From sequence record OR896820.1: DNA of 64,000 nt. One strand, written 5' to 3'. Each line of letters starts with the position of its first letter. Position 1 is the stretch's first letter. Below the pieces are notes generated by a model. That model did no database searches, was not told the DNA's origin, and saw only the letters and a list, made by a program, of their open reading frames with translations. Positions 31,252 to 64,000 of the stretch are shown here, piece after piece. Position numbers and translations under genes: made by a program. This DNA comes from Escherchia phage Stokescottia.

Positions 31252-31259
31252 AAATTCAT

Positions 31260-31612: not shown

Positions 31613-31818
31613 TGAGGATTACTTTTACAGAAAAGATCATGAGTAATGGTGTTATGATCATTACTGCATGGGATGGTAATCAGTGGTGTAGTGTTTCAGG
31701 TATTAAGCCTGAAGAACAAACACTAGAAAATATCTCAAAGATTAAGCGAAGAATGGCAGAACGTGCACGACTTCCAGGTGCACCTAGAAATGGCAAACGT
31801 TCTGCAATTAAATGTTAA
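31591..31818 (+). CDS. hypothetical protein
   Basis: ORF track. Confidence 0.45.
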   Translation: MLRRVAIMRITFTEKIMSNGVMIITAWDGNQWCSVSGIKPEEQTLENISKIKRRMAERARLPGAPRNGKRSAIKC

Positions 31819-31819
31819 T

Positions 31820-31896
31820 GCTTCGGTAGCTTAGCGATCTAAAGCACTCGGCTGATAACCGAGAGATCGGGGGTTTAAATCCCTCCCGGAGTACCA
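31820..31896 (+). tRNA. tRNA-Ile (anticodon GAT)
   Basis: Acceptor GCTTCGG/CCGGAGT, D-stem GCTT/AAGC, loop CTGATAA, T-loop TTTAAAT, discriminator A, CCA. Confidence 0.7.
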
Positions 31897-31992
31897 AATT
31901 TAGGAATTAAGACTATGCGTCCAGGAAAGTTTAAAAAAGCTAATTGGTCTAAAGAGTATAAAGAATACTTACTTAGTCTAGTAAAACATAAC

Positions 31993-32068
31993 AGTTAGTT
32001 GGCAGAGTGGTTATGCACCTCCTTCATACGGAGCGACTACAGTGGTTCAAATCCACTACTAACTACCA
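31993..32068 (+). tRNA. tRNA with CAT anticodon (Met or Ile-lysidine type)
   Basis: Acceptor AGTTAGT/ACTAACT, loop TTCATAC, T-arm AGTGG-TTCAAAT-CCACT, discriminator A, CCA. Confidence 0.6.
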
Positions 32069-47632: not shown

Positions 47633-48246
47633 TGTTTACACAACAACCTATTCAAGTAGTACCGGATCATGAACTGAATACGTGGGATTATAGCTTTAAA
47701 GATTTAACCGCTACTGTACAATTTAAGTCTATGAAGCTAACATTTGCACACAATGACCTTAGAGCATGTAAAGATCTTGAGGATAAGCTCGAAGATGCTC
47801 GTAAGATTTTTGGCAAGGCTCGCATCCCAGCTGATAATCTAATTAACGCATTAATCGATGCAGGGTACAAACTTGTGAAGACTGAGGTGAACCGCCCTAG
47901 TACTCCAGTGACTATTAGAGATCCGTGGCAGTCCGGGACAATCTCAATGCTGAATAACTCCGATAAAAGATTAATGTCGGATATGCACAATGTTCCTTGT
48001 GGGGGTGTGGTAAGTAGTACGCAGTCATATAAGTTTGTGGAAGATTACGGCCCTTCTGTACAGTTGAAACATACTCAAGAAGCTTTTGAATCTGATATGC
48101 GAAGCGTAGCACCTGCGGATGCTGGAGTTTCTAGGAGTTCTGTTTGTACTATTCATTTTAATAATCCTAATAAACATGGAAGTTTAGAAGATGCTATTAT
48201 GGAGGCGTTGGGAGCTGCTATTAATGAAGATAAGAGGGGTAATTAA
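47632..48246 (+). CDS. hypothetical protein
   Basis: ORF track. Confidence 0.5.
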   Translation: MFTQQPIQVVPDHELNTWDYSFKDLTATVQFKSMKLTFAHNDLRACKDLEDKLEDARKIFGKARIPADNLINALIDAGYKLVKTEVNRPSTPVTIRDPWQSGTISMLNNSDKRLMSDMHNVPCGGVVSSTQSYKFVEDYGPSVQLKHTQEAFESDMRSVAPADAGVSRSSVCTIHFNNPNKHGSLEDAIMEALGAAINEDKRGN

Positions 48247-49136
48247 TGGGATTTTATAGTAATAGAAAACCAAAAGGTGTAACTGGTAAATTCGCAGTTG
48301 AAGAAAGACCTTTTCCACCAGTCGATGTAGAGAAACTACGTAAACTTCTAGAAATGCTAGAAGGTTGCCATGAACGTTGTTATTCTGAACTCTCTTTAAA
48401 TGAAAAACGTGTTGTTGAGATGTTCTGTATTCGTTCAGCTAGAACAGCTAAAGGTACTTCTCCAAAAGATGAAGTAAAAGAATACAGAGTTCTAGTGATG
48501 CATGCTTGGGCACAACGTTTTGCAGTTCATTCGCTTCAGGAATGGTTTAATCTTCCTGCATATAAAGATTTCCATGTTTACGAAGATGAAGTTATGAATT
48601 ATAATGAGTTATATGGTTTGTCCTTCAAAAAGACAGGCTCACCGATGCATGATGCACTCAATTCATTCCCTGATCATTACCTTCCAGTTCGTGAATACAG
48701 AGATCGTGAAGGAAATAAACCCTGCTTCACTATTTGGAATAAGTCTAAGACGATATCTGATCTAGATAATTATTGGTTCCGCACAAAAGAAGGATTCCTA
48801 GGAACAGAACCTTTACCTAAGGATCTCAAACCTATCCTTCCTCCTGCGAAACCTAAGCATGAAGTAACGATTGCTATTAATAGAATAATTCTAGGAGCAG
48901 ATGATCTTACTAAACAAATCGCCGCAGTTATCGCAGTTCTGTTTGATGGTACAAATTCTTCTACACGTTATGAGAAGCTAACGGATAACAAATTGCAGAT
49001 ACCTAACGAGTTGTATGAGAGTTCGTGCAAGATCTATGATAACTTTAGTAAAGTAGATTACCCCGTGAGATCCATCAAAGAACTCATGGAGTATGCGGAG
49101 ATGGGGATGAAAGGAAATCTCATGTTCGATGAATAA
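48246..49136 (+). CDS. hypothetical protein
   Basis: 296 aa; last plus-strand gene before the repeat region. Confidence 0.5.
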   Translation: MGFYSNRKPKGVTGKFAVEERPFPPVDVEKLRKLLEMLEGCHERCYSELSLNEKRVVEMFCIRSARTAKGTSPKDEVKEYRVLVMHAWAQRFAVHSLQEWFNLPAYKDFHVYEDEVMNYNELYGLSFKKTGSPMHDALNSFPDHYLPVREYRDREGNKPCFTIWNKSKTISDLDNYWFRTKEGFLGTEPLPKDLKPILPPAKPKHEVTIAINRIILGADDLTKQIAAVIAVLFDGTNSSTRYEKLTDNKLQIPNELYESSCKIYDNFSKVDYPVRSIKELMEYAEMGMKGNLMFDE

Positions 49137-49143
49137 ACTCTAC

Positions 49144-49172
49144 TTGACGTTATGATTTCTGCATGTTATAAT
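49144..49172 (+). promoter_or_regulatory. sigma70-type promoter reading into the repeat region
   Basis: TTGACG 49144-49149, TATAAT 49167-49172. Confidence 0.45.
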
Positions 49173-49508
49173 AACTCTATGAAATAACATAGAATAAAGA
49201 GATCCACCCGGATACGGATGGTGGATGGGAAACTTCTATTTCCCCCGTAGCTTGTCGGAGGGCTAGGGAAATCTTAAGAAGTTTTGTACCATCTCACGCA
49301 ATTCGTATCCCAGGGGTGGAGCATCTCTTCCAATCTTTGGGGATCTTATACTTAAATTAAAGGTAAAACTTTTGACCACATAATTTACATTTAAGATGAT
49401 ACACCGGTTGCCGCCATTCTTCCTAGGATGGCACAACACTTTCTAGTAGACTCCTAAGTTTCTAGGAATAGTTGAACACTAACTCTAGAGTTTACACTAA
49501 ACTTTAAA

Positions 49509-50230
49509 TCGGATTTGCACATGTTCTAGGGCAGTTTTTCACCTACTATAAATACCCTAGGCCGGTTTTCCTATACAGGGCGGTTATTTCTAGGAGACAT
49601 TTTTTGAAAACACATTTCCAGAAATTACTGTCGGATTTGCACATTGTGTTTCTAGAAATTTATGGTCGGATTTGCACAATTGCCTAAGTTTTCATGGACA
49701 CATAATCTCCTGAAAATGGCAGCATTATTTCGGGCCGAAGGCCCATGATTGCCTGAGTTTTTAGAGCCACAGAAATTTTCACTTGTCAAGCTATTTTGCC
49801 CCATTTTGCTAATAAAATTTTACTTTATCTCGCCCCAAGCCCAATTAACCCAAATTATCTCAACTCTTCCCCAAAAACGCAGCAAATCAGGTGCCCCGCA
49901 CCAAATATGCTGCCCCTCTAGCTTCTCCCTCTATTTTCTCTCGCTCTCTCATCTTCTCCCCAAACTCACACAATCACACGCCCTCTCATCGAAGTCACAA
50001 AAATCTTGTCGGATTCGCACATCTTAATCCTAGAAAAACCATGTCGGATTTGCACATACCCCACAGGATTCGAACGCAGTTCGAGATTGCTGGAGTTTTT
50101 GGGAAAATTCATTGTCGGATTTGCACACTATAAAAATTTTTCGGGTCGGATTTGCACACTACCAAAAATTGTCGGATTCGCACATACACGCCCGCACGTA
50201 ACACCCGTGGAGCAATGTCGGATTTGCACA
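49509..50230 (+). repeat. array of nine direct repeats GTCGGATT(T/C)GCACA with irregular spacing
   Basis: Copies at 49509, 49630, 49665, 50008, 50043, 50114, 50145, 50171, 50217; all same orientation. Confidence 0.85.
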
Positions 50231-50233
50231 AAA

Positions 50234-50255
50234 GCGCAGGGCAATTGCCCTGCGC
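50234..50255. repeat. perfect 22-bp palindrome GCGCAGGGCAATTGCCCTGCGC
   Basis: Read directly; immediately follows the last direct repeat. Confidence 0.85.
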
Positions 50256-50470
50256 TAAATACGAATGATAATAAGAATCATTCTCATTTAAAAAGCGGAA
50301 TGAGAATGATAATAATTCGCATTTAGAAAGTGAAACGAGAATCAATCTCATTTAAAAAGTGAAATGATTCTCGTTTAAAAAGCGGAATGAAAATTATTCA
50401 GGAAGTGAAACGATTCTCATTTAGAAAGTGAAATACAAATGAGAATGATTCGCATTTAAGAACGGAAGTG
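50256..50470 (+). repeat. degenerate tandem repeats (~25-30 bp unit, TC[TG]CATTTA[AG]AAAG[CT]G[AG]AA[CT]GA)
   Basis: About seven imperfect units read directly. Confidence 0.75.
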
Positions 50471-50600
50471 AGAAACACTGTTATTTAAGTTATCCACAGA
50501 CTTATTAACAGCACGATTTGACTTGACAAAATTCTAGCCATTTTGAAGCGTTATCAACAGACTTATCCACAACTTATCCTACTGTATAAATATACAGTAT
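50471..50600. repeat. left copy of ~130-bp imperfect inverted repeat with DnaA-box-like motifs and a LexA-box-like palindrome
   Basis: Aligns with the reverse complement of 54490-54620; contains TTATCCACA at 50490 and 50563 and CTGTATAAATATACAG at 50582. Confidence 0.75.
50582..50597. promoter_or_regulatory. LexA-box-like palindrome CTGT-N8-ACAG (also contains TATAAATA)
   Basis: ACTGTATAAATATACAGTA matches the gammaproteobacterial SOS-box consensus TACTGTATATATATACAGTA at 18 of 20 positions. Confidence 0.5.
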
Positions 50601-50965
50601 TCCTACGCAGTGAATAATTCTAATATAGCGTTAAAACGCTCTCAAACGCATTCTAACGCGTTTAATTTTGTTGGGGATACTAAAACAAGGGCAAAATTGG
50701 AGGAGGCTTGAAAATTAGTTAGCCCGCTAACGATCACACAAGGCGACACGTAACACCCTAACCATTAGCAGGCTAACCATCGCGGACGCGGTCAAATGAG
50801 AATGATTATCCTTTGAAAATTGGGGGCACTTCCTGATAGTTGCGCCCCGTGATTATTATAGTAGTGGGCAACCGTTACGCTTTGCCCACTCCCGCCACTC
50901 ATCTTGATGCCTAGACTTGCGACGGCGTACTAAAAACCGCTTGTACCAGTGATTAAACCATCGTT

Positions 50966-51169
50966 TCATAAATCCTCCTCCGGTAGTCGATGCGTGATCT
51001 TCTCCTCTTCCCTGTAGGAGTCTGCCAAATGCTGATAATAACCATCGTGATCATAAATCACTTTATCATACTCGCCACGCTCGACCGCTTGCCGGTTCTC
51101 CGGCGTATCGGGCACGTAAAAAACATCAACCATTGTACTGATTTTGGTTACAACAATTTTATTGCTCAT
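50966..51169 (-). CDS. hypothetical protein
   Basis: ORF track; last gene of the minus-strand cassette. Confidence 0.45.
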   Translation of the reverse strand: MSNKIVVTKISTMVDVFYVPDTPENRQAVERGEYDKVIYDHDGYYQHLADSYREEEKITHRLPEEDL

Positions 51170-51221
51170 AATAACGCTCCGTTACTATATAATCTCATTG
51201 CAATACACCAAAATTATATAG

Positions 51222-51437
51222 TTACTCATATTCTAGCTCGAAAATATCCTCACCATATAATTTGATTAAATCAATTAAATAAAACGCTGTGCCAGTATTA
51301 TTATTTCTTCTTATAAATCTATGATGAGCGTCTTTAAATACATTGAATACATCCCCTATTTTACCTACTCCCCATAAATCCTGTGTTAATTTTACCCGTT
51401 TAACCTTTAGCAACATATTCCAAGTAATTTCACTCAT
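51222..51437 (-). CDS. hypothetical protein
   Basis: ORF track; ATGA overlap with upstream gene. Confidence 0.45.
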   Translation of the reverse strand: MSEITWNMLLKVKRVKLTQDLWGVGKIGDVFNVFKDAHHRFIRRNNNTGTAFYLIDLIKLYGEDIFELEYE

Positions 51438-51778
51438 TGCGCCACCTTTCGAAACGCTGTTTCAATACTATCCGCAGTGGATTGAATATACGCGCCTTTC
51501 ATTATCAGGCGCTCAGTGCATACTTTGCGGAAAATATTAATAAAATCATCTTCATTTTCTGCAATTAATGCTTCACCCATAACTTGAACGTCACAAGATG
51601 CAAAAGTTAAAAATTGAAATGCTAGTTCACGGGCAACGACCGCATTGATTTTATAATGCGCCTTGCCCTCATAAATATTAATAACGCCCTTATAAGCTGG
51701 TGAAAGCTGATTCAAATAGTTTGCTAATAATGCTGGGCGGCAATTAGCAACAAAACGATTGCCCTCATAAATAACCAT
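51434..51778 (-). CDS. hypothetical protein
   Basis: Start at 51778 (MVIYEG). Confidence 0.5.
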   Translation of the reverse strand: MVIYEGNRFVANCRPALLANYLNQLSPAYKGVINIYEGKAHYKINAVVARELAFQFLTFASCDVQVMGEALIAENEDDFINIFRKVCTERLIMKGAYIQSTADSIETAFRKVAQ

Positions 51779-51901
51779 TTGACAGCCTCCCAATTAGATA
51801 GCCAGATAATAACATAAAGATCCCCAACGAAATGGGGTCATTTTTGAATAAGGTGGCGGTAAAACCGCCAACCATTGCAAGGGCAATAACGATAACGCTT
51901 T

Positions 51902-52114
51902 TCATAGTACCCCACGAAACGCAGCGTAAAAGGTGGCAAAGTGTTTAACCGTTTCAGCGATCACGTTGCCGCGCTTATCAAATTTTTTCTCGGTAACACG
52001 AAAGGCATTTTTGTTACGTGCTACATATTCGATTTTACAATCTTCCCGCTCGAACGTGTTAACATCCACCAGCTTAAAGCCTTTCGAACGTGCAAGAGAA
52101 ACGTTGCGGATCAT
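51902..52114 (-). CDS. hypothetical protein
   Basis: ORF track. Confidence 0.45.
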   Translation of the reverse strand: MIRNVSLARSKGFKLVDVNTFEREDCKIEYVARNKNAFRVTEKKFDKRGNVIAETVKHFATFYAAFRGVL

Positions 52115-52116
52115 TT

Positions 52117-52299
52117 TTATTCTCCTTTACTAGTCATGCAGCCCAGCAGATAAGAAAATACAGCAATGCCAGCACCAATAGTAACCATTGGTTTTGTATT
52201 TACTAGACCGCAGTAGGAATCCTGAATACCATAAGCGGTGGCGAAAAGAGTCAAAATAGCGCCCAAGATACCCGCCAGAATAGCTCGAAAAATAACCAT
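52117..52299 (-). CDS. small membrane protein
   Basis: Two hydrophobic helices. Confidence 0.45.
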   Translation of the reverse strand: MVIFRAILAGILGAILTLFATAYGIQDSYCGLVNTKPMVTIGAGIAVFSYLLGCMTSKGE

Positions 52300-52348
52300 T
52301 TGTAATACTCCCCTAGTTAGTGGGGCGAAAGTAACGCCCCGTTATTAA

Positions 52349-52579
52349 TTACATTAAAACAATTTTTGCCGCTTGTTTTTTGGTACAGTGTTCCGCTTTC
52401 AGGGTATCCAGCAAAAAGCCAGCCGTTTGCTGATCGATTTTATCGGCGTTGTATAGTTCTTGGATGGTGTTATAAGTTTTAGCAATGCCGAACTCCTGCA
52501 CCATGTCATGAATGATGACGCGGTTAGACACCCAGCCTTGAGCGGTAAACAGATGACTAGCAGAAGAATAAGCAACCAT
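52349..52579 (-). CDS. hypothetical protein
   Basis: Start at 52579 after RBS GGAGG. Confidence 0.5.
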   Translation of the reverse strand: MVAYSSASHLFTAQGWVSNRVIIHDMVQEFGIAKTYNTIQELYNADKIDQQTAGFLLDTLKAEHCTKKQAAKIVLM

Positions 52580-52684
52580 TTTAAGCCTCCAAATTTTTGG
52601 GAAAATTTTCAATCCACCGTTTTGGTGTAAAGGCATTATAACAAAAAAGGCCGCCATAAAAGGCGACCTTTACAAAACTTTACA

Positions 52685-53179
52685 CTAAACTACCTGTAAG
52701 GATTCAACATTGAAACATCGTTTCAGTTCGTCATGCAAGATAGCATATTCATCCCATCGGGTACTATCAGGAATATAAACAAGCTGTTTTAATCGGTTTG
52801 CGTATATTACCGCTTTATTGCCAATTATTTCCGCGCCACCATGTTTAATAATTAATTTCATGACGGAATTAATAGGATCGCCGCCGTTTACATATGCGCC
52901 GGATTTACTCAATTGATAATGATAAAGGCTTGCATATACGTTTTCATTTTCATACCATTCGCCCGATTCCTCGTCTTCGTAACCATCGCTACCAAAACGA
53001 GAAGCGTTATCAATAGCCATTTCATGAGCGAAAGCGTCCAGATCACAACCAGCGGGAACAAAGTGTTCCTCCGTCCAACCTTCCCCGCAATAGCCAGTAT
53101 GACAATCGACCAAAATGATCATATCATGTTTTGCCGTGCTCACTTCTCCCAGTGAGAAGCCATATTTTTCTTCTGACAT
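52685..53179 (-). CDS. acidic hypothetical protein
   Basis: Start at 53179 after RBS AGGAGG; Cys/His cluster VDCHTGYCGEGW. Confidence 0.55.
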   Translation of the reverse strand: MSEEKYGFSLGEVSTAKHDMIILVDCHTGYCGEGWTEEHFVPAGCDLDAFAHEMAIDNASRFGSDGYEDEESGEWYENENVYASLYHYQLSKSGAYVNGGDPINSVMKLIIKHGGAEIIGNKAVIYANRLKQLVYIPDSTRWDEYAILHDELKRCFNVESLQVV

Positions 53180-53243
53180 AATTAGCCTCCTATTAATTAA
53201 CAAGGGAATAGTAAAGCGGGGAAACAATCCCCGCTAAATATTA

Positions 53244-54230
53244 TTACTCGCTTTCGGTGTTAGTAGTAAAAGTAGAAATATCAATACCTTTCACCATTTC
53301 ATCAATCATTTCAGCAATATTGAAACTCTGTACCATTTCCAACATTGCCGCTTCCATTGCCGCCCCTGCTACCGCTTTCGCCTTTTGGTTAGTCGGGGCG
53401 TACTGGTCAACCGCTACACTCAGCAGGTTAGCGATCACTACACGACCAATCGGCGTATCAATATAACCTTTAATCATAAACGGTGCTTTTTTAGCCGCTA
53501 CTTTCGTGATTTGAGTTAGTGCAATTTTACCCGCTTCCAGTTTTGCAGCGTTTACAACAGCGGATTTATTAGCGGCAACGATGTTAGCAATCTTGGTCAT
53601 GGTGTTTTTTCCTTTGTTTTCAGTAGTTTGAGTGTTAGAATTTACAGCCTGATTTTCAACGTAAATACTTTCTTCTCTTTCGAAAGAGAATCCCGCACTT
53701 TCGACGTCGCCATCATATACATACGGGTATAATTCCGAGGGTAACAAAAAATTACCGTCGCCATCAAAAGCCATTATAGCGGTATATTGAGATCCGTCAT
53801 TATCCGGCTTATACCATCCAGCAGGTAAATACTTCCAGATAACATCTAAAAATCCCTCAATGCTAGAAAGTCCATTTATCAGATCAAGTCCAATAAGCTC
53901 AAAACCATTTATATTAAATGATTGACGGCCTGAATTGCTATGATACGCAACAATATTATTACCCTGCGCAACAATAAAATCGGTATCCGGCCCCGCTCCC
54001 CTGCCTGTAAAGATATGGCAATCCCGATTATATAAAACTAGCGTTGCCCCTTGCTTATATAACGGTAGAAAACTATCCATATCATAGGCGTCATACTCAT
54101 CAAAAAAGTTTTGATGAATAGTTTCAACCTTGTTAATAAAATGTTTAATGCTGGTTGACTTGCTACCGTCCAGCAGGTTGCGCAATGCACCTTTTAAAAC
54201 GGTGGCATTATCAGGTTTAAAAAGCCTCAT
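53244..54230 (-). CDS. hypothetical protein (first gene of cassette)
   Basis: Start at 54230 after RBS GAGGGAGG; ~330 aa with globular N-terminal half and Ala/Lys-rich helical C-terminal half. Confidence 0.55.
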   Translation of the reverse strand: MRLFKPDNATVLKGALRNLLDGSKSTSIKHFINKVETIHQNFFDEYDAYDMDSFLPLYKQGATLVLYNRDCHIFTGRGAGPDTDFIVAQGNNIVAYHSNSGRQSFNINGFELIGLDLINGLSSIEGFLDVIWKYLPAGWYKPDNDGSQYTAIMAFDGDGNFLLPSELYPYVYDGDVESAGFSFEREESIYVENQAVNSNTQTTENKGKNTMTKIANIVAANKSAVVNAAKLEAGKIALTQITKVAAKKAPFMIKGYIDTPIGRVVIANLLSVAVDQYAPTNQKAKAVAGAAMEAAMLEMVQSFNIAEMIDEMVKGIDISTFTTNTESE

Positions 54231-54489
54231 TTGTTCGGCCTCCCTCGTTAATCGGTGAGTGAATGATATAGATATTTGTTCACTAGGGGCAAGAAAAAAG
54301 AAAATGTTTTTTATTCCTTGCCTAGCGCCTAATTTTATGCTAACCGCGCAGCGGTGTAGTAAAGAGCAAAACACGGTGAAGCCACCAGGCCGACGCATTG
54401 AGGCTTTGCTTTAATATTACCTTGCAGCGTTTAGCTCGTTAGAATGCGATTTAGGCCGCTTAAAATTGATTGCAGTCGTTAACACTACC

Positions 54490-54620
54490 TTTTTACCCTG
54501 TATATTTATACAGTAGAATAACCTGTGGATAAGTCTGTGCAAAAGTCCTTATATCGCCGCCTATCGTGTCAAATCTTTTTGTGCTGTGGATAACATTGTG
54601 GATAACTTAAATGATAGTGG
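54490..54620. repeat. right copy of ~130-bp imperfect inverted repeat
   Basis: Reverse complement aligns with 50471-50600; DnaA-box-like 9-mers at 54524, 54585, 54597 and palindrome CTGTATATTTATACAG at 54498. Confidence 0.75.
54498..54513. promoter_or_regulatory. LexA-box-like palindrome upstream of the minus-strand cassette
   Basis: CTGTATATTTATACAGTA; on the minus strand reads CTGTATAAATATACAG about 285 bp upstream of the cassette start. Confidence 0.5.
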
Positions 54621-54639
54621 TTCTCACTTAGGCCGATGG

Positions 54640-54880
54640 TTTCTTATAGTTATTATTTACTGTAGTTATTATTTATTATAATTATTATTTCTCATTAATT
54701 TATATGTATATTATATATTATGTAATAGTTAGTTGGCTAATGAGATTTTCCGTGATTAATAGTCTGCTAATAATTTAATCCGTTACAATCCACCAGCATG
54801 ATTATCATCCTAGCAATTATTAGTCTGCTATTCTTCCAATACACACTAGCAAATAAAAGTCAATTAATTTATTTCATAAA
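54640..54880. other. strongly AT-rich block (possible DNA-unwinding element)
   Basis: Runs of TTATT/ATTAT with almost no G or C; flanked by DnaA-box-like motifs. Confidence 0.5.
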
Positions 54881-54886
54881 ATAAGT

Positions 54887-54923
54887 AGTTATCCACTGGA
54901 AAATAAAAGTCAAGTGGATAACT
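54887..54923. promoter_or_regulatory. palindromic pair of DnaA-box-like motifs (GTTATCCAC-N18-GTGGATAAC)
   Basis: Read directly; operator-like inverted repeat. Confidence 0.55.
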
Positions 54924-55368
54924 AGGAAAATTTCATTTTTGCTTTTGGGGATAAGTTATCAACAAGGCTAGAATGCGCCTAAAACGCTCCAGAACGCAAT
55001 AAAGTTTTTAGCCATCCCATCATAAGGGGATAGGCCGTTTATCGCTACCACGAGCTTTTTAGATTTTGTCAAGTAGGGCAAAGCAAATATAAATGAAAAA
55101 ATTACTTGCCTATCTGCTCTGTTTTGTGGTATTCGCGCGCCCGTTTCTTTTAATTTTAGGCCGTCGCCGGACGTGGTGCGGTGAATTTTGTCTTTACGTT
55201 TCTTTACAAAAATAGGGTTGCGCCATTTTCGGGAATCCCCTATTATTTATCACGTAGGGCGGCAATGACGAACTACACGGCGGGAAGTTTACCGCCGCGC
55301 TCTTTAAAAATTGGGTACATCTTAAAGCCTATCGGCGGTAAACTTATTCATTATAAGGAATCGACGAT

Positions 55369-55572
55369 ATGAAACAAACTTTATTGATCACTGGCAAGCC
55401 TAGCAAGGCACTAGATAGCAAAACAAAAAATTTGTTGACAGTAGCGCAAAGATCGGTAAAATATCGATTCACGCAGTACAAGAAAGGTCGCCAGCAAGGT
55501 TTAGAAATGATCTGGCGAAATATTATGATTGACCTGAAAGAAAATCATAAAAAATCTCAAAAAATTGTTTGA
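55369..55572 (+). CDS. small basic protein
   Basis: ORF track; RBS aggaa. Confidence 0.4.
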   Translation: MKQTLLITGKPSKALDSKTKNLLTVAQRSVKYRFTQYKKGRQQGLEMIWRNIMIDLKENHKKSQKIV

Positions 55573-55800
55573 CACCCTAGCCGATAGGCTTTAAGATGTA
55601 CCCAGTTCGACAAGAGCGATAACTTGATAAAATTTGACGGTCGGCACTTACCATAATGTGTCCCGCCCCCTAACTGGGATATAGCGGCCTACGTGGAGTT
55701 CTTTAAATTGATTATATTGGCGAGCGGATTGTTACTTATTACCTGCTACTTTCTAGCAGGTAATGCGGAACAATCCCCTAAATAACTTGGAGTTTATACT

Positions 55801-56052
55801 ATGCAAAACGTTATTACCGCGCCTAAAATTGGTCAATCCGTCTTCATTCCTTTCGTTACTAAAACGGATGAATTAACCGGAAAAGCCGAACGTATTAAAG
55901 GCGCGGCGCTTATGCCGTTTGATACAATCGACGCGGTATACGCTGAAACGGAACGTAGTAACAACGGCAAACCCGTTTTTAGCGTTCGCGTTAAATCCGG
56001 CGACGTTGTAAAGGTTGTTCAACGTAACGAAAAATGGGAAGCTGTTTTATAA
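55801..56052 (+). CDS. hypothetical protein
   Basis: ORF track; conserved upstream motif and GGAG RBS. Confidence 0.5.
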   Translation: MQNVITAPKIGQSVFIPFVTKTDELTGKAERIKGAALMPFDTIDAVYAETERSNNGKPVFSVRVKSGDVVKVVQRNEKWEAVL

Positions 56053-56150
56053 TCTAGTGTTAACTTTATATCCCCCTTATTTCAGGGGGATATAACGATT
56101 AACATTAAGTTAATCTAATCCCTTAAATTAAACAAACAGGAGTTTATATC

Positions 56151-56558
56151 ATGACTAACGCTAAAACCGCAAAATTTGCATGGAATGAAGAAAACACTCA
56201 AAAAGCTGTTTCCATGTATCAGCAATTAATCAACGAAAACGGTTTAGATTTTGCAAATAGCGACGGCCTGAAAGAGATTGCAAAAGCAGTAGGCGCGGCC
56301 TCCCCCGTATCCGTTCGGTCAAAATTGACCAGTGCAAAAGCCTATCAAAAAAGCGACAAGCCGCGCAAAGTTGGCGGCGGTAGTTCAATCCGCAAGGCTC
56401 ACTATGTGCGCGTTATTGCAAAACACGCTATCGATTCCGGCATTATCAAAGACGCCGACGATCTGGCAAGCCTTGAAAGTGCAAAATTGGAAACACTGGA
56501 CGCTGTAGCGCAATTGTTAGGCGTTGCCGATGAAGTGAAACAGGCCGCAGGGGAATAA
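56151..56558 (+). CDS. pre-early-type small protein (A2-like by size and position)
   Basis: 135 aa directly upstream of the A1-like gene; assignment by synteny and size only. Confidence 0.4.
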   Translation: MTNAKTAKFAWNEENTQKAVSMYQQLINENGLDFANSDGLKEIAKAVGAASPVSVRSKLTSAKAYQKSDKPRKVGGGSSIRKAHYVRVIAKHAIDSGIIKDADDLASLESAKLETLDAVAQLLGVADEVKQAAGE

Positions 56559-56648
56559 TAGTTATATCTTGCCCCCTTCTAGTGAGGGGGCAATAATATA
56601 ACTGTTTAGCGATAGTTATTTTCTTCCCTTAAATCAGGAGTTTTAAAA

Positions 56649-56846
56649 ATGATTTTCTTTCCTACTGAATCCTTAATTCTAGGCTTGTTTATTATGGCGG
56701 CCTCGTTATTGTTCGCTTATTTTCAAAATGATTTAGATTCGTATTATTTTAAACGCAAATCTAAATTGGCAAAGCGTTTAGGTCTGATTTGTTTTATTGC
56801 CGCCGTTGCTTGTGGTGTTAGTTCTAGCCTAGTGCCTTTAAATTAA
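56649..56846 (+). CDS. small membrane protein
   Basis: Two hydrophobic helices. Confidence 0.45.
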   Translation: MIFFPTESLILGLFIMAASLLFAYFQNDLDSYYFKRKSKLAKRLGLICFIAAVACGVSSSLVPLN

Positions 56847-56937
56847 TGTTGCAAATTATAACGCCTATTATTGGAGGCGTTATATTTGGCAATATTGCCA
56901 AAATTGAATTTAATCCCTTTAATGGAGTTTTATTACT

Positions 56938-58608
56938 ATGATTATTTCCGCAGAAAAACAAACCGTTATCCTGAAAATGGCCGCTGATTTCAATTTCTAC
57001 GGTAAACGCCTGCGCGCCACTAAATTGGAAGTTTGTGACGATATTTCGAAAGCGGTATACGATACTACTAAACACTCCACCACTATCTGCGACTGGCTGG
57101 AAGCAAATAAACCAGCGAAACCGAAAGCGGCAAAAGTAGCAAAAGCCATTAAAAACGATGAGCGCCCCGAAGCGGCTGGGATTGTTTCTAGTACCGTGGA
57201 ACAGTGGGAAGTAAAACAAGGTAAACGTTTTATTATTACGTCGATTCAAAATAATACTTTCCCGCATAAAAACTTTTTAGCCGCGCTGGAGCAATATGCT
57301 AAATTTATCGGCGCTGATTTGCTTGTTTCTAAGTATATTTATAATAAAAACGGATTCCAAAATGGGGAAGGTGCTGATGGGATCAAATATGATCCCGCTT
57401 TCGATAAATATATTTGCAGCAAAAACGTGTTTTTAAATAACCGCCGTTTCGCTTTCATGGCTGAAATTAATGTTTTGCCAACCGCAGATTATCCGCTTTC
57501 TGGATTTGCAGAAACTGCAACGGCTTTAAATATCGAGGGTCTGGCAATTGGTCACGCTAAAATCACCGCCGAAAGCGTGCCAGCTTTAAAAGGTGAAGTA
57601 GTGCGCCGTATGTATTCAACCGGAACGGCAACGCTCAAAAACTACATTCAGCAGAAAGCAGGACAGAAAGCGGAAGCACTTCATAATTTTGGCGCGCTTA
57701 TTGTTGAGTTCGACGACGACGGGGAGTTTTTTGTTCGCCAGCTTGAAACAATGGACGAAAGCGGCATGTTTTACGATTTGAATATTTGCGCCACTCCTTC
57801 GGGATGTTTTGAAACGTCGGGGCATGTTTTAGGCTTGCAGTATGGCGATATTCATGCAGAAAAACTAGATGAGGCTTGCGCTCAAGCGTCTTGGGGTCAT
57901 GGTGATACTTATGGGCTTGTGGATATTCTCAAACCGAAATATCAGTTTGTACATGATGTGCATGATTTTACATCCCGCAATCATCATAACCGCGCTTCTG
58001 GTGTATTCCTAGCGAAACAGTACGCCGCCGGACGTGATAAGGTTATTGATGATCTTATCGATACGGGGCGCGTGCTGGAATCAATGGAGCGTGATTTTTC
58101 TCAAACAATCATTGTTGAATCAAATCACGATTTGGCGTTATCCCGTTGGCTGGATGATCGAAATGCTAACATCAAAGACGATCCAGCAAACGCCGAACTA
58201 TATCACAGCCTAAACGCTGCAATCTATGCGGCTATTGCAAAGCAGGACGATACTTTCAACGTGCTAGATTATGCCTTGCGTAAGGTAGCAGGTTGTGAAT
58301 TTAACGCCATTTTCCTGACCACTGACCAATCGTTTAAAATTGCAGGCATTGAATGCGGCGTACACGGTCACAACGGCATAAACGGCAGCCGTGGCAATCC
58401 TAAGCAGTTTAAGAAATTGGGCAAGTTAAACACTGGTCATACTCATACGGCAAGCATTTACGGCGGCGTATATACCGCTGGCGTAGCAGGTAGTCTGGAT
58501 ATGGGTTACAACGTTGGCGCGTCAAGCTGGACGCAAACCCATTTAATTACATACGCAAACGGTCAGCGCACTTTGATTGACTTTAAGAATGGTAAATTCT
58601 TTGCGTAA
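56938..58608 (+). CDS. A1: A1-like pre-early protein with C-terminal metallophosphoesterase domain
   Basis: 556 aa; C-terminal half has GDIHAE, HDVHD, SNHD, GVHGHNG, TGHTHT blocks in calcineurin-like order; size matches what I recall for T5 A1. Confidence 0.55.
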   Translation: MIISAEKQTVILKMAADFNFYGKRLRATKLEVCDDISKAVYDTTKHSTTICDWLEANKPAKPKAAKVAKAIKNDERPEAAGIVSSTVEQWEVKQGKRFIITSIQNNTFPHKNFLAALEQYAKFIGADLLVSKYIYNKNGFQNGEGADGIKYDPAFDKYICSKNVFLNNRRFAFMAEINVLPTADYPLSGFAETATALNIEGLAIGHAKITAESVPALKGEVVRRMYSTGTATLKNYIQQKAGQKAEALHNFGALIVEFDDDGEFFVRQLETMDESGMFYDLNICATPSGCFETSGHVLGLQYGDIHAEKLDEACAQASWGHGDTYGLVDILKPKYQFVHDVHDFTSRNHHNRASGVFLAKQYAAGRDKVIDDLIDTGRVLESMERDFSQTIIVESNHDLALSRWLDDRNANIKDDPANAELYHSLNAAIYAAIAKQDDTFNVLDYALRKVAGCEFNAIFLTTDQSFKIAGIECGVHGHNGINGSRGNPKQFKKLGKLNTGHTHTASIYGGVYTAGVAGSLDMGYNVGASSWTQTHLITYANGQRTLIDFKNGKFFA

Positions 58609-58664
58609 TTAAATTATTACCCTAGCGGCTTGAAATATAGCCGCTATTACAGGAGCTAAATTAA

Positions 58665-58943
58665 ATGGCTATTAAAATTAATCTTCCCAACGTTAAAAAC
58701 ACCGCCGATACATGGTCGATTGATACTATATTGCGCGGCACTGTATACCGCAATTTAAAAGATAATAATTGTTATATTTATCAAAATGAATTAAACGGCC
58801 ACACTTATATAATTGAGTCCGATGGTTTTTGTTCTTTTGAGACTGATTATGAAGCGAAAGATCATATACAGGCAAATGATATTCCTGACGTATGGAAAGA
58901 AACAAATCTCGCTTTTGTTGTAAGTCTTGAAGCTAACAAATAA
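58665..58943 (+). CDS. hypothetical protein
   Basis: ORF track. Confidence 0.45.
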   Translation: MAIKINLPNVKNTADTWSIDTILRGTVYRNLKDNNCYIYQNELNGHTYIIESDGFCSFETDYEAKDHIQANDIPDVWKETNLAFVVSLEANK

Positions 58944-58981
58944 ATTAAATCCCTTATTAAATTAATTGGAGTTTTATAAAT

Positions 58982-59374
58982 ATGAAAAAGCAAAATATTC
59001 CTTTCGATCGCGCTCAATCCTCAATTGTTCTGGTTTATTCTAATGGCGAGCGTTATCACGTCGAGGCAGGGCACGTTATTGATGAATTATTAGACTTCAA
59101 TGACGCTTTACAGGTTACTACCTTTGCCTATACGCAAGGCCGCGCAAGTAGTTACATTAAGGCCGCAGGTGTTTATGTTGATACGGTGAAACAAGAAACG
59201 ATTATCATCGACGCCGTAAAATCCGGCCTTGCCTTTGCAGTTGTCGCGCCTTGCCCCGCTTGCCTCGATGATCACCTAGCGAGCGCAAAGGTATATACCT
59301 GCGCGGGTATTCGTTCCCATGTATCCGGCGAAGATATTAGTTTTATTGCTGATGCATTGGCTTATGGTCTTTAA
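58982..59374 (+). CDS. hypothetical protein
   Basis: ORF track. Confidence 0.5.
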   Translation: MKKQNIPFDRAQSSIVLVYSNGERYHVEAGHVIDELLDFNDALQVTTFAYTQGRASSYIKAAGVYVDTVKQETIIIDAVKSGLAFAVVAPCPACLDDHLASAKVYTCAGIRSHVSGEDISFIADALAYGL

Positions 59375-59453
59375 TAGTTGATTTATTATTGCCCGCTGAT
59401 AAATAGCGGGCAATGCTGAATTAATCTAATCCCTTTAATGGAGAACGTAACAA

Positions 59454-60188
59454 ATGAATAAAGCTATTATTAATTCTTTCCGTAATTTCCCGCATATTTC
59501 CCGCGTCATGATTTGGGATTTAGACGGCACTATCATTAATTCTTTCCATCGTGTAGCGCCTTGCTTTGATAGTGAGGGCAATTTAGATTTAAATAAGTAT
59601 AAAAATGAAGCCTGCAAACATCATTTAATAATGCAAGATACTTTATTGCCATTGGTTGAATATATGCGCCAGTGCATGAATGACGCAAATACTTTAAACA
59701 TTATTTGCACCGCTCGATTGATGAGCAAGTCGGATTACTATTTCTTGCGCAAACAAGGATTGCGAGGGCGTGGAAATAGCAATATCCGCGTGTTTTCCCG
59801 CGATACACTGCACAAATATTTTGAGGCTGATAAAGTTAGCGAAATATACCACAGCAAAGACGCAGTTTATAAATCTTATTACTTTGAGCTATTTAAACAG
59901 CTATATCCGAATGCTGATTTTACAATGATTGACGATCATAAAGGCGTGCTATCAGCGGCGGCATCATACGGGTTTAAAACGCTGGACGCGCAAGCCGTTA
60001 ACGATATTCTATCAATCGGCGTGGCATTGATAGGTGAAACCTTTATCGATGAATCTCTCGACGATGATAATGATTATCAGTTCCTAGCTGATCGCTTGAA
60101 ATTATGTTGGGAAAGTATGACCGAAGAAGAACGCGCAGAATATAGTTGCAGCCCGCAACAATATATTGAGAAATTAAAAGTTGCGTAA
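59454..60188 (+). CDS. dmp: HAD-family phosphatase (5'-deoxyribonucleotidase Dmp-like)
   Basis: N-terminal MIWDLDGTIINS matches HAD motif I; 244 aa in a pre-early-like context; symbol by analogy only. Confidence 0.45.
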   Translation: MNKAIINSFRNFPHISRVMIWDLDGTIINSFHRVAPCFDSEGNLDLNKYKNEACKHHLIMQDTLLPLVEYMRQCMNDANTLNIICTARLMSKSDYYFLRKQGLRGRGNSNIRVFSRDTLHKYFEADKVSEIYHSKDAVYKSYYFELFKQLYPNADFTMIDDHKGVLSAAASYGFKTLDAQAVNDILSIGVALIGETFIDESLDDDNDYQFLADRLKLCWESMTEEERAEYSCSPQQYIEKLKVA

Positions 60189-60201
60189 TAATTAAAGTTG
60201 A

Positions 60202-60239
60202 AATAGTCACGGTGTGTAACGATAACATGCCGTGACTAT
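60202..60239. terminator. palindromic hairpin between convergent genes
   Basis: ATAGTCACGG...CCGTGACTAT inverted repeat. Confidence 0.5.
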
Positions 60240-60345
60240 TAGCTTGCTAAGTACCGGGCGGTAATGAGACTCATTCTCATCTGGGAGGCCACTGGACACA
60301 CCTCCATGTGTAATCTTATGAAATTTGGCAAAAGTCAAATTAGCG

Positions 60346-60561
60346 CTATTTACGGGCTGACTGCCTGAGAATGGACTGCCATAGATGGTCAGTCTTAACA
60401 AGATTATTGATGTACTCAATAGCTTCACCAAATCTCATAAATCCTTCTGGAATTTCCGAAGACTTAGGAAAAACTTGTAGCATCCCTTGGGTGATACCCA
60501 TCTTTTCAAGTTCTTCTTGAGTTATCTCAAACTCCCCGAAAAACCGCCCGAATTCTTTCAT
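60346..60561 (-). CDS. hypothetical protein
   Basis: Start at 60561 (MKEFGRFF). Confidence 0.4.
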   Translation of the reverse strand: MKEFGRFFGEFEITQEELEKMGITQGMLQVFPKSSEIPEGFMRFGEAIEYINNLVKTDHLWQSILRQSARK

Positions 60562-60803
60562 GAGCTTCTCCTGTCTACTGGCTTGTCTCCTGATTCTGAC
60601 ATACGAAATCTCTTCCGCGACGCCCGAGATCCATCCGACCACTCCCGTTCAAACTCCGCACGTTTCTCGTCAAACTTCCGCTCCCTTTCCGCAATCTCCC
60701 GCGACACTTCCGCAATATATTTACGATGCTTGTTGATTGCCGCAGTCGTCCCGAAAACTCCCGCGAGTATCCCGATAATAAAAGCAATTATAATACTAAA
60801 CAT
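60558..60803 (-). CDS. membrane-anchored basic protein
   Basis: N-terminal TM helix then Arg/Glu-rich tail. Confidence 0.45.
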   Translation of the reverse strand: MFSIIIAFIIGILAGVFGTTAAINKHRKYIAEVSREIAERERKFDEKRAEFEREWSDGSRASRKRFRMSESGDKPVDRRSS

Positions 60804-60990
60804 CTAATTCCCTCTCAATTTGCAGAATACGGGTGCTATCACAACGTTGCAGTAGTACTAGCTTTTCTAGAGCAACCTGTTGTTGTTTTACCTGGGCTTC
60901 TAGAGTTTTTAGGCGGAGATACACGATACGAGAGACAATGAGGATTACCCAGACTAATATTACTATTAGTGTAACTGTCACTTCCACCAT
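60796..60990 (-). CDS. membrane-anchored coiled-coil protein
   Basis: N-terminal TM helix then coiled coil. Confidence 0.45.
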   Translation of the reverse strand: MVEVTVTLIVILVWVILIVSRIVYLRLKTLEAQVKQQQVALEKLVLLQRCDSTRILQIERELDV

Positions 60991-61398
60991 TTACGCTTCT
61001 CCAATAGTAAGGTTTCAATTCTAGCTAAGTGATTATCTAAAATACACTGCCCAATAATCACAATCCCTAGTAGCGCAATAATTACCCATTCCATTAAATC
61101 CACCCCGCCATAGCTGCTAGCCAAAAACCTACGAAAATAAAGAATAAGATAGTTCCGAATCCGAAACTATTTACCCAGCTATCATATACCTCTCCACGTC
61201 TGCTCTTTCTTTTATTTGACATATCTTTCATGCTCCAGTAAATATGATATTTTAAAATATTTTATAGTTTGTGCATAACCAACCATGCTCGTGACTTCCT
61301 AGAGGGCTTTTCACTTTCTTGCATAGTGTTTTCTGCCAATATACCATCCAAAAAATAAAAAATTTAGTTTACTTGGATGTCTTTTTGTTTTATACTAA

Positions 61399-61665
61399 TT
61401 ACAAGTAATTAGATTGTTCTAGTTTAAATTTACAATCACCATATTTAAGATCAAACTGACTGAGATCCCACCACCCAAACTTAGTACGGAGCTGTACTAC
61501 TGGAAAGCGATCTCCCTTAATACGAACTTTTTGAACCTTGAGGCCGTAATGTTCTTCTCCCGCACCACCAAAAGATTTTACAAATCCCGTACAAAATGGT
61601 TTAGGAGCAGGTGCACAACCAGATAACATAACTGCGGCAACTAGTGCAATCACAAACTTTTTCAT
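61399..61665 (-). CDS. llp: small lipoprotein (Llp-like lytic-conversion/superinfection-exclusion candidate)
   Basis: Signal peptide with lipobox LSGC; 88 aa; divergent from the adjacent receptor-binding gene. Confidence 0.5.
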   Translation of the reverse strand: MKKFVIALVAAVMLSGCAPAPKPFCTGFVKSFGGAGEEHYGLKVQKVRIKGDRFPVVQLRTKFGWWDLSQFDLKYGDCKFKLEQSNYL

Positions 61666-61750
61666 ATTTATCTCTCCATTTCTAATTTATGAATCTATTA
61701 TAGCAAAATAGAGGGATGAAAGCAAATACATTTTTATAATAGGAGATTAT

Positions 61751-63508
61751 ATGGGTTTTTTCGCTGGAAAATATAGCGATGGTAAGACCGTACTATCTTT
61801 AAATACTGAATCTGGTGGTGACATTAATCGTCACTATAGTCCAAATAATAATAGTATTTTTCATAGTGATATGCCATTTGTCCTAGTTGATGGTACCTAT
61901 GAGGCTCCATTAGGCAATGCTGGAAATGGGTTTTTTGTATGTCAGATGCCCTCTGACATAATAAATATTAAATCTAATGACCCAGGTAGAGTTATACTAA
62001 CTGCTATTGAGATTAATGGTACTCATAGGGCTTTTCTTAACGGTACTCAGAGTAAGGTGGGTCAAACTATAGTTGCTACTCAGGCAGACCCTTTTAGGTC
62101 TTTTGCTAGTGTTTCCCAGACCAGTGGATTTGCCTTTGGTAATAGCCTGGCATCTGGTACATATAACTATAACCCATCTATAGGTCATGAAGAATCTATT
62201 TCTAGGAATGGTACTGGGGGAACCACCCTACATAGTACTTATCACGGTATAGTTAGGCCAGGTGGAGGAGCTCCCGTAGGGGTTACTGTTGCAGAAGCTT
62301 TTTCACAGCTGGGTTTTCCTACTAATAGTAGTACAGTACCTATAGATGGTAATAATCCATACTACTGGGATCCAGGATGGATGTCTCCTTTAGGGTCAGC
62401 ACACAGAGGACACGATTGGTTCTATGTTTGTAACTCCAATATACGTGGGTATGGTGGGGTAAGACAAGGTCTTCCTGGCAATGTAAATACTATGTACCAC
62501 GATGGGGGTAACAGATTTGTTTGTAGGGGTTCTACAACTAATTTAGCTAATCAATCTGGTAATGCTACAATATTACAGGATTGGTATAACATAACTCCTA
62601 CTAAGGTTATTTGGTATGTACTTAATCTGAGATATTCTAATGGTAATATGGGTATCTCTGGTAATCCTTTTACTGGTTCAGATATTCTTATCTCTCCCTC
62701 TAACTTCATAATTAAAGGAGTAAGTCTTCCTAATACTGGATATAAGTTTATTAACCAGAATGCTTTCGGTAACTTAGGCTATAGGCCAGATATGGAATAC
62801 GTCGGAAATAACGCAGCGTACACTGGAGCCTTCGGGGATACCACTGCAAGGTGTGAACTTGTAGGCTCTAGTAATGGAAGTTTATGGTCTCCTGTAGACT
62901 ATGGAGGGGCTAAGTCTCAAATTAGTATTTACAAATTCGGAGCGGGTAAGCAATGGTACGTAAACTCAAGTAATAATACTATTGGTAATGAACATGGTGT
63001 TGTTTGGGGGCCTTCTTCAGTTCCTCTGAGACTTTTTAGTGGAAATGTTGGTAGTTCTTACATGGGGGATGATATTACCCCTTACTACCCAGGAACTGGA
63101 GATAGATATGTGGCTTTATCTACTATTGGACTAGGTATTCCAGGAGGTAATGCTACTGTTATTCTTACTACTGAAGTTATATCTGGTAATCTTAATTGTG
63201 CTGGTGTTCCAGCTAATACATGGAATAATGGTGTATTTCAGGTGCAAGGTAGAAGGGCTTATAGTTATAGTAATGGAGATGCAGTATTCCACCAGATTTT
63301 AACATTACCTGTAGGTTACTTAGTACCATTTCATACTACATCTGCATTTAGATATACACCTAATAACGCACTGAGTAGAAATAGTTTCATATATACAGTT
63401 AAAAATCTAGGAAATGGAAATGTAGAGTTAGGGGTAGTTATGCACGTAAGTTTAGGTAGTGCAGTTTTCCTACCTAGATTAAGAGTAACAGTTCAACGCC
63501 TTACCTAA
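61751..63508 (+). CDS. putative receptor-binding tail protein
   Basis: 585 aa, Gly/Asn/Ser/Thr-rich with no catalytic motifs; paired with the divergent lipoprotein gene. Confidence 0.5.
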
Positions 63509-63518
63509 AGGAGGAAAT

Positions 63519-64000
63519 ATGGCAAATGATGTATTAGTACCGGATCTTATGTCCCCTGAAGGGATGGATGTAATTGAAGCTTATTTACAGTGTGGCAGTG
63601 ATGTGCCTTCTGCCGCACGTAGTCTTGGGATGTCCGAAATTGCTTTTCGAGATATTATGAATCGTAGTGAAGTTAAGAACTACTTAAACGATATTTTTAT
63701 GGAGAGTGGTTTCCGTAACAGAGATCGTTTATTTGGTGTTCTAGATGAAGTTATCAAGCGTAAACTAGAGGAACTAGAAGAGACCGGCATGGGTTCTGAC
63801 CAAGATATTATGGATATTCTCTGGAAGGCACATAAAATGAAAATGGAAGAGATGAAGATGATGGTAGAATTGGAGAAAGTGAAGGCAGCAGCCCGTACTC
63901 CAGCTAACCAGACCAACATCCAGAATAATATTATTGCTGGAGCTGGGGATCAAAACTACATGGACTTAATTACTTCCCTAGCTACTGGAGGTAAGAAGTA
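63519..64000 (+). CDS. HTH-containing protein, possible terminase small subunit (3' end beyond window)
   Basis: Open to window end; N-terminal helix-turn-helix-like [17 protein letters not shown] then coiled coil. Confidence 0.35.

Follow-up and report, generated by a model that had tools for sequence, protein, structure and literature searches.

Gene content and orientation of the window

The window, a 64,000-nucleotide stretch of the phage Stokescottia record OR896820.1, derives from a Tequintavirus (T5-like phage) and is oriented opposite to the T5 map. Its nearest relative is Salmonella phage L6jm at 98% identity, and the best matches in the phage collection, which come from different phages, have 98% identity over the repeat region and 97% over the early region. 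We identified the genes with PHROGs, Pfam and tblastn against T5 proteins. Pfam gave no match for terS, the receptor-binding protein (RBP), dmp, A1 or A2, so these assignments depend on PHROGs and on direct comparison with the T5 proteins. Read from position 64000 down, the gene series is colinear with T5: terS, RBP, lipoprotein, T5.159-162, dmp, A1, A2, T5.011-017, and T5.018 onward (Table 1). The block of T5.159-162 homologues is the unique late-side DNA adjoining the repeat, and the early region beyond the T5.018 homologue contains 21 tRNAs, the nrd genes and T5 early promoters.

A first-pass annotation had proposed the order of a terminase-like gene, RBP, lipoprotein, Dmp, A1, A2 and a DnaA-box region, and our gene assignments confirmed it. 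Its placing of this order on the reverse strand holds for the map order, which is indeed reversed, but not for the coding strand, as terS, RBP, dmp, A1 and A2 are all encoded on the plus strand.

At the other end of this series, the terL ATG starts one nucleotide past the end of the window, and the last base of the terS stop codon is the A of that ATG. The records of five other phages (Lindwurm, SESL, Baret, PMBT29 and MET_P1_179_112) stop at the same base before the terL ATG. That the window stops exactly here suggests that the record was re-oriented to begin at terL, and, as this stop coincides with the start of terL, the end of the window would also be the end of the record.

Table 1 Features of the Stokescottia window, with window coordinates
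Feature	Position	Strand	Evidence and remarks
terS (terminase small subunit)	63519-64001, last base outside window	+	phrog_3802, E 6.5e-91; 100% aa identity to T5.156
Receptor-binding tail protein, non-FhuA type	61751-63508	+	phrog_4815; 29% identity to T5 pb5, 66% to BF23 RBP
Receptor-blocking lipoprotein, Cor type	61399-61665	-	phrog_1119, LPAM_1 lipobox
T5.159-T5.162 homologues, small membrane proteins	60603-61222	-	comparison with T5 proteins
Predicted left virion end	60297/60298	-	LTR starts and RTR junctions of T5, L6jm, MM-1, K37, SIA3lw; genome predicted to begin (T)GTCCAGTGGCC...
T5-type long terminal repeat, single copy	49764-60298 (~10,535 bp, 40.3% GC)	.	alignment to T5 and four two-copy relatives
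dmp, deoxynucleoside-5'-monophosphatase	59454-60188	+	94% aa identity to T5.001; phrog_415
A1 DNA transfer protein	56938-58608	+	95% aa identity to T5.004; phrog_1745
A2 DNA-binding protein	56151-56558	+	100% aa identity to T5.006; phrog_1725
T5.009, T5.008, T5.007 homologues	55265-56046	+	T5 protein comparison; DUF7177
Partner arm, IRC-spacer-IRD equivalent	54498-54629	.	four DnaA boxes
T5.011-T5.017 homologues, second pre-early block	50966-54230	-	tblastn 83-100% aa identity; first is Pfam DUF7566
T5 iss region equivalent	49834-50983	.	coordinate transfer from AY543070 misc_feature 9140-10149
Inverted-repeat arm, IRD'-spacer-IRC' equivalent	50466-50597	.	four DnaA/DnaA* boxes in two pairs, 3 bp apart within a pair
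Perfect 24-nt palindrome AGCGCAGGGCAATTGCCCTGCGCT	50233-50256	.	at T5 major single-strand nick site (7.9%)
DRD direct repeats TCGGATTTGCACA, nine copies	49509-50230	+	six inside the repeat, three outside
Predicted right virion end	49764	-	...GTGAAAATTTCTGTGGCTC; end nucleotide common to T5, L6jm, MM-1, SIA3lw
T5.018 homologue, first early gene outside repeat	48246-49136	+	PHROGs/T5 comparison

A single repeat copy with both unique junctions

The virion DNA of T5-like phages is linear, and the ~10 kb at its two ends form identical direct repeats. For the repeat boundaries we took as references five phages whose records hold two copies: T5 (AY543070), L6jm, MM-1, SIA3lw and Kenya-K37. In AY543070 the LTR spans 1-10219 and the RTR 111532-121750; in the alignment, LTR position 1 falls at window position 60298 and position 10219 at 49764. 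The L6jm repeat (10,386 bp, its two copies 100% identical) maps to 60297..49764, the repeat edges of MM-1 and SIA3lw coincide with 49764 and 60297/8, and those of K37 lie within 15-29 nt. The segment so delimited corresponds to first-step-transfer (FST) DNA, and dmp, A1 and A2 stand at its left end, colinear with T5, as the T5-type FST gene set.

Junction alignments found the late/TR and TR/early flanks of both T5 and L6jm around one window copy; in L6jm, the LTR with its early flank and the late flank with its RTR align to one and the same window segment. A repeat search across the 64-kb window (seed 14, minimum 60 nt) detected no second or partial repeat copy, returning only T5 early-promoter families and a 132-nt inverted repeat. 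The late/pre-early and pre-early/early junctions are each native to T5 virion DNA, in the RTR and the LTR, respectively. What is diagnostic is the presence of both on one copy: in relatives with mapped termini they lie at opposite genome ends, and here they flank a single copy.

At the right cut, the surrounding 60 nt are identical in the window, T5 and L6jm, and the context is also kept in Shivani and phiR2-01. The left boundary is identical to that of L6jm and has (T)GTCCA-TG in common with T5, from which the window's left-end sequence is otherwise only moderately conserved. Given this moderate conservation and the 15-29 nt offset of the K37 edges, the exact end bases in Table 1 are predictions.

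Three T5-like annotations needed separate treatment. The 80-bp conflict over the T5 LTR end (10139 in AY587007, 10219 in AY543070) proved to be a numbering offset caused by an internal sequence difference, with DRD copy 7 at 10225 versus 10305; both records put the LTR end at the same base. AY692264, a T5 record from the st0 deletion mutant, was excluded for boundaries, as its annotated LTR ends at 9749, the nick position. The left end of phiR2-01 was excluded for the left boundary, being annotated ~80 nt further in than in the other records.

The injection-stop region and the DRD array

In T5, the FST DNA enters the cell first and expresses dmp, A1 and A2, and transfer then pauses at the injection-stop region (iss). 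In the window we take the entry end to be 60298 and the pause to occur at the iss, about 49.8-51.0 kb, with its DnaA-box inverted repeats. The two inverted arms are 132 nt long and 75% complementary. Their DnaA-box clusters lie at 54524-54605 and 50490-50571, and the direct repeats come after the latter. These two clusters contain every one of the five exact TTATCCACA boxes of the 64-kb window. The window has the features of a T5-type FST region in this respect, with a large untranslated iss at the right end of the repeat, both arms, eight DnaA/DnaA* boxes and nine DRD. The layout of inverted arms and eight DnaA/DnaA* boxes, with pairs 3 bp apart, has been described for T5 (bioRxiv 10.1101/866236) and is also annotated in AY587007. 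Davison's estimate of the FST shear point, 9618, transfers to ~50367, and the T5 nick 9748/9749 to 50233/50234. The first-pass annotation had expected the physical ends and the injection-stop locus in or near 49-60 kb, and both the predicted ends and the iss equivalent lie within that bracket.

The T5.011-017 homologues, situated between the two DnaA-box clusters, are pre-early genes within the repeat, and the true early genes start only left of 49764. In T5, T5p010 is annotated as '37 kD pre-early protein' and T5p017 as '33.8 kDa early protein'. The earlier expectation that early genes follow the repeat/DnaA-box region therefore stands for the genes left of 49764, but not for those between the clusters.

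The DRD array comprises nine copies, against 0.05 expected by chance; window-wide there are 10 matches, including an outlier at 47977, and T5 likewise has nine annotated copies. The copies form two clusters on either side of the cut, which falls within a DRD-free gap of ~340 nt. Their distances to the cut (-466, -420, -394, -363, -292 and -257 on one side; +86, +121 and about +250 on the other) are equal in T5, L6jm, phiR2-01 and the window, and in Shivani for the five nearest copies. In SPP1, pacL and pacR boxes flank pacC, an arrangement that the DRD clusters around the cut recall. It is conceivable, though doubtful, that the 13-mer array serves as a packaging recognition site positioning the right-hand terminase cut, and is not, or not only, part of the iss. 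The literature we searched assigns no function to the DRD, and a search for T5 terminase recognition sites gave nothing relevant.

The window as a probable collapsed assembly

One copy bearing both unique junctions is impossible in virion DNA and hence points to an assembly collapse that yields the layout of a concatemer junction. We conclude that the window very probably represents the final 64 kb of a Tequintavirus record that has been collapsed and circularised and runs in reverse to the T5 map, with the merged copy at 49764-60298. That late and early regions are joined through one terminal repeat copy had been suggested in the first-pass annotation, and the edges of the five two-copy phages support it. 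We infer that Stokescottia virions carry two repeat copies. Reads from the two would be indistinguishable to an assembler, which would therefore merge them as one; the merged copy would then join the right-hand unique end (T5.159-162, lipoprotein, RBP, terS) to the left-hand unique end (T5.018 onward). In replicative circles and concatemers, which have a single repeat for each genome unit, this layout is physically real. We presume that terminase cuts at 60297/8 and 49764 and that the repeat is duplicated in packaging.

Consistent with this reading, among the best 40 megablast matches six two-copy records of 116-119 kb end at query 625/654, which is window 49764/49793, while the records of 98-113 kb continue through these positions. 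The A1 gene occurs at 569 places in 489 records, so that ~16% of the records hold two copies. Collapse of T5-like terminal repeats is already known; it is the usual assembler outcome and is explicitly described in the literature. In relatives, twofold coverage of the repeat with read starts piling up at its boundaries is on record, the doubled coverage being attributed to two DTRs that overlap once the assembly is circular (PMC10783031), the 106,623-bp SPAdes contig of SIA3lw became a deposited record of 116,541 bp, with a repeat of 9,916 bp per end, after PhageTerm (PMC12752171), and the mishandling of T5 repeats by assemblers has been pointed out (bioRxiv 10.1101/866236).

If the sequence instead reproduced a molecule that really exists, a replicative circle or concatemer junction from, for example, infected-cell or metagenomic DNA, its layout would be identical. 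In electron micrographs, T5 circles have the length of the genome less one terminal repeat, and packaging starts from concatemers (bioRxiv 10.1101/866236). We nevertheless consider this origin improbable, since phage records are nearly always built from virion DNA and the apparent start at the terL ATG suggests that a circularised contig was re-oriented bioinformatically. The repeat boundaries and the virion ends would be the same for such a molecule as for a collapsed assembly.

Very unlikely is a Stokescottia genome without a long terminal repeat, packaged by a headful or circularly permuted mechanism, for which the single-copy layout would be the true genome. A terminase tree and submolar restriction bands led to this conclusion for phiLLS, a 107-kb T5-like phage (PMC5519627). 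Against it, the window's terS is 100% identical to that of T5, the window and T5 agree at all 60 nt around the right cut, and the DRD copies keep their distances from this cut. Moreover, L6jm, the nearest relative at 98% identity, has two copies in its deposited record, and the K37 ends were established by PhageTerm, coverage and PFGE. We give just as little credence to a mis-join with a second repeat copy elsewhere in the source record: although Davison reports dmp/A1/A2 misplaced by assembly errors in some GenBank T5-like records (bioRxiv 10.1101/866236), the window copy has the native sequence at its two junctions, base for base, about 79 other records traverse the whole region with the order unchanged, and a record that begins with terL, which the end of the window suggests, leaves no room for a terminal copy.

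Read as a collapsed assembly, the record understates the virion genome by ~10.5 kb and ~17 genes and makes its physical ends invisible. The collapsed form can mislead, as the published packaging mode of phiLLS illustrates (PMC5519627). Our analysis contributes the predicted ends (49764 and 60297/8), at which the record could be re-linearised, the FST/iss region and a corrected temporal class for the repeat genes; its value is practical, not conceptual, and it reveals no new biological system.

Comparison with known systems

The T5 LTR/FST has the same order as the window (dmp-T5.002-T5.003-A1-T5.005-A2-T5.007-009, T5.011-017, iss), and the two repeats share 85% nucleotide identity over 10.3 kb, an identical right-end context, the DnaA-box inverted repeats, nine DRD and the nick-site palindrome. 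Unlike T5, the window has only one copy, with both unique flanks attached, and lacks the hegG HNH endonuclease and a T5.016 homologue. It also has an extra gene of ~550 nt after T5.011, found in L6jm, Shivani and SIA3lw as well, and an insertion of ~20 nt just inside the left end.

L6jm (MN956514, 118,452 bp) is closer, with 99.6% repeat identity, the same left end GTCCAGTGGCC and, in the late flank beside the junction, the same 257-nt insertion. It differs in having the virion form with two copies and in lacking 120 nt found in the window at 50859-50978, and its early region beside the repeat is only 88-97% identical to the window. The records of Lindwurm (OK143207), SESL (PQ041310), Baret (OR896834) and phB7 (OQ680479) have, like the window, one repeat copy bridging late and early regions; several of this type end at the window's end base, although their identity to the window is only 90-94%.

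In T7 concatemers, one repeat copy lies between units, is needed by both daughters and is therefore duplicated at packaging. The T7-type junction resembles our reading of the window, with a single repeat copy between genome units. In contrast, the T7 repeat is ~160-200 bp long and non-coding, whereas the T5-type repeat, at ~10 kb, carries its own gene class and an injection stop signal.

A single terminal-repeat copy carries both native junctions

In T5-type virion DNA, the junction of late genes with the terminal repeat (TR) is confined to the right repeat copy (RTR), and that of the TR with early genes to the left copy (LTR). In the window, one repeat copy carries the late-TR and TR-early flanks together, and a repeat search of the whole 64-kb window found no second copy. 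Both junctions around one copy, with no other copy in the window, thus point to a collapsed layout. The first-pass annotation had proposed a collapsed terminal repeat from the late, pre-early and early gene order at 49140-64000, and this interpretation is supported, as both native junctions flank one copy and relatives with two copies share the boundaries. The feature is the T5 terminal repeat in its usual collapsed representation, and as such is already known.

Salmonella phage L6jm is deposited with two repeat copies of 10,386 bp each, 100% identical; the left copy with its early flank aligns onto the same single window segment, 60297..49764, as the right copy with its late flank. The boundaries of the annotated T5 repeats (AY543070; LTR 1-10219, RTR 111532-121750) transfer by pairwise alignment to window 60298 and 49764. 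The annotated repeats of MM-1 and SIA3lw give identical window boundaries, and those of Kenya-K37 lie 15-29 nt inside them. An 80-bp end discrepancy between AY587007 (10139) and AY543070 (10219) proved to be a numbering offset, the end itself being unchanged. In the multiple alignment, the late-side junction runs from native unique sequence ...ACATGGAGGTGT into GTCCAGTGGCC, which is the L6jm left end, and the early-side junction reads ...GTGAAAATTTCTGTGGCTC followed by TAAAAACTCAGGCAATCATGGGCC. The latter is the LTR-early junction of T5 and L6jm, identical over 60 nt, and the right-end context is the same in Shivani and Epseptimavirus phiR2-01. A mis-join with the second repeat copy lying elsewhere is unlikely, as each junction matches the native one at every base. 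On homology, 60298 and 49764 are predicted to be the exact end bases in this phage.

Directly outside the left repeat boundary, a 257-nt segment (60346-60603) shared with L6jm alone encodes a 71-aa ORF (L6jm ORF159) and takes the place of the C-terminus of the T5.162 homologue.

Related records and published precedents

A megablast search of 50,697 phage records with 49140-64000 as the query returned 534 matching records, nearly all from T5-like phages of Salmonella, Escherichia and Klebsiella, with L6jm (Tequintavirus) as the top match (94% of the query covered, 98% identity). Among the matches listed, six records of 116-119 kb contain the region twice and themselves terminate at query position 625/654, which corresponds to window 49764/49793; in the listed records of 98-113 kb, the alignment continues uninterrupted past these positions. 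The A1 gene as query found only 569 places in 489 records, so about five-sixths of the related records are single-copy.

The A common to the stop codon of terS and the ATG of terL lies 1 nt beyond the window end (63998-64000), and among the megablast matches listed the Lindwurm, SESL, Baret, PMBT29 and MET_P1_179_112 records finish at exactly the window's last base. A window end beside the terL ATG, where five related records also end, suggests a record start re-oriented to terL; the source record is probably a circularised contig treated in this way. If the sequenced molecule was a true concatemer or circle, which we consider very improbable, the layout would appear the same and the boundaries would be unaffected.

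A region of >twofold coverage was reported for each T5-like genome and attributed to two direct terminal repeats overlapping in the circular assembly, as confirmed by PhageTerm and PFGE (PMC10783031). The SIA3lw SPAdes contig of 106,623 bp was re-organised by PhageTerm (PMC12752171), and SIA3lw was deposited as 116,541 bp, with an annotated repeat of 9,916 bp at the record end. Large terminal repeats trouble assembly software, and circles observed under the electron microscope amount to the genome minus one repeat (Davison, bioRxiv 10.1101/866236). Headful packaging by a phage truly lacking a terminal repeat, a conclusion published for one collapsed T5-like genome, phiLLS (PMC5519627), is contradicted here on three counts: terS matches its T5 counterpart exactly, so does the cut-site context, and ends have been mapped in relatives.

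Gene order and temporal classes

PHROGs and Pfam searches, together with tblastn run directly with T5 proteins, confirmed the identity of every gene named in the first-pass annotation, and the window genes, read right to left, are colinear with the T5 map. The order described there for the reverse strand holds, but the strand does not, most of the named genes being encoded on the + strand. A second correction concerns the genes flanked by the DnaA clusters, which fall within the repeat and are of the pre-early class. In the T5 annotation, T5p010 carries the label '37 kD pre-early protein', and T5p017, the equivalent of T5.018, is listed as an early protein.

Features of the window and their supporting matches
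Feature	Position	Strand	Basis or remark
terS	63519-64001	+	T5.156, 100% aa identity
Receptor-binding tail protein	61751-63508	+	phrog_4815
Cor-type lipoprotein	61399-61665	-	phrog_1119, lipobox
T5.159-162 homologues	60603-61222	-	tblastn
dmp	59454-60188	+	94% aa identity
A1	56938-58608	+	95% aa identity
A2	56151-56558	+	100% aa identity
T5.011-017 homologues	50966-54230	-	83-100% aa identity
DRD 13-mers, nine copies	49509-50230		TCGGATTTGCACA
T5.018 homologue	48246-49136	+	tblastn, phrog_8583
T5 early promoter unit, ~67 nt, >20 copies	6171-43907	+	TTGCT at -35, TATAAT at -10, conserved downstream ATAAATTGATGAGAGG
tRNA cluster, 21 genes	19925-32068	+	typical of T5 early region

The injection stop region and the DRD array

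The T5-type terminal repeat is the first-step-transfer (FST) DNA. If T5 biology maps onto the window, its entry into the cell would begin from the end at 60298, the repeat would express dmp, A1, A2 and the remaining pre-early genes, and transfer would then pause at the injection stop signal (iss). Coordinate transfer from T5 places the iss-equivalent region at ~49834-50983, the estimated FST shear point at ~50367 and the major 7.9% nick at 50233/50234, at the perfect palindrome AGCGCAGGGCAATTGCCCTGCGCT. The 64-kb window contains five exact DnaA boxes (TTATCCACA), all confined to two clusters (50490-50571 and 54524-54605), which are the arms of a 132-nt inverted repeat. The arms measure 131/132 nt and contain eight DnaA or DnaA* boxes in total, four per arm, in pairs 3 bp apart. 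With these arms and nine copies of the direct repeat DRD, the window conserves the T5-like architecture described by Davison (bioRxiv 10.1101/866236).

The DRD copies extend past the repeat boundary into unique DNA, at -466, -420, -394, -363, -292, -257, +86, +121 and ~+250 from the right repeat end. All these distances are kept in T5, L6jm, phiR2-01 and the window, and the five nearest copies also in Shivani; the right-hand cut falls within a DRD-free gap of ~340 nt. The literature we found assigns no function to DRD repeats; speculatively, the array may serve in terminase recognition.

Differences from T5 and close relatives

The receptor module of T5 is of FhuA type, whereas that of the window (61399-63508) is not. 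The 585-aa receptor-binding protein is 96% identical to that of DaisyDussoix, 66% to the BF23 protein, a BtuB binder, and 29% to T5 pb5; tblastn found no match between the Cor-type lipoprotein and T5 Llp. In T5, the HNH endonuclease gene hegG separates repeat regions 1 and 2; the gene is absent at window 54656-54867, and is missing from most T5-like phages (Davison, bioRxiv 10.1101/866236). Compared with T5, the window has an extra ORF of ~165-180 aa after the T5.011 homologue (52688-53240), also found in L6jm, Shivani and SIA3lw, and a different small ORF at 51222-51437, where T5.016 would sit. L6jm, otherwise the closest relative and 99.6% identical in the remainder of the repeat, has a deletion of 120 nt (window 50859-50978) that are present in the window and T5.

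The T5 early region occupies the leftmost 49 kb of the window and encodes ribonucleotide reductases and thymidylate synthase; its >20 early promoter units are equivalent to the classic strong promoters of T5. The closest relatives vary along the window: the early region (1-49763) is nearest to YJin-2024a and HMD-7 (97%), the repeat and late side (49764-64000) to L6jm (98%). This difference in best matches indicates mosaicism.
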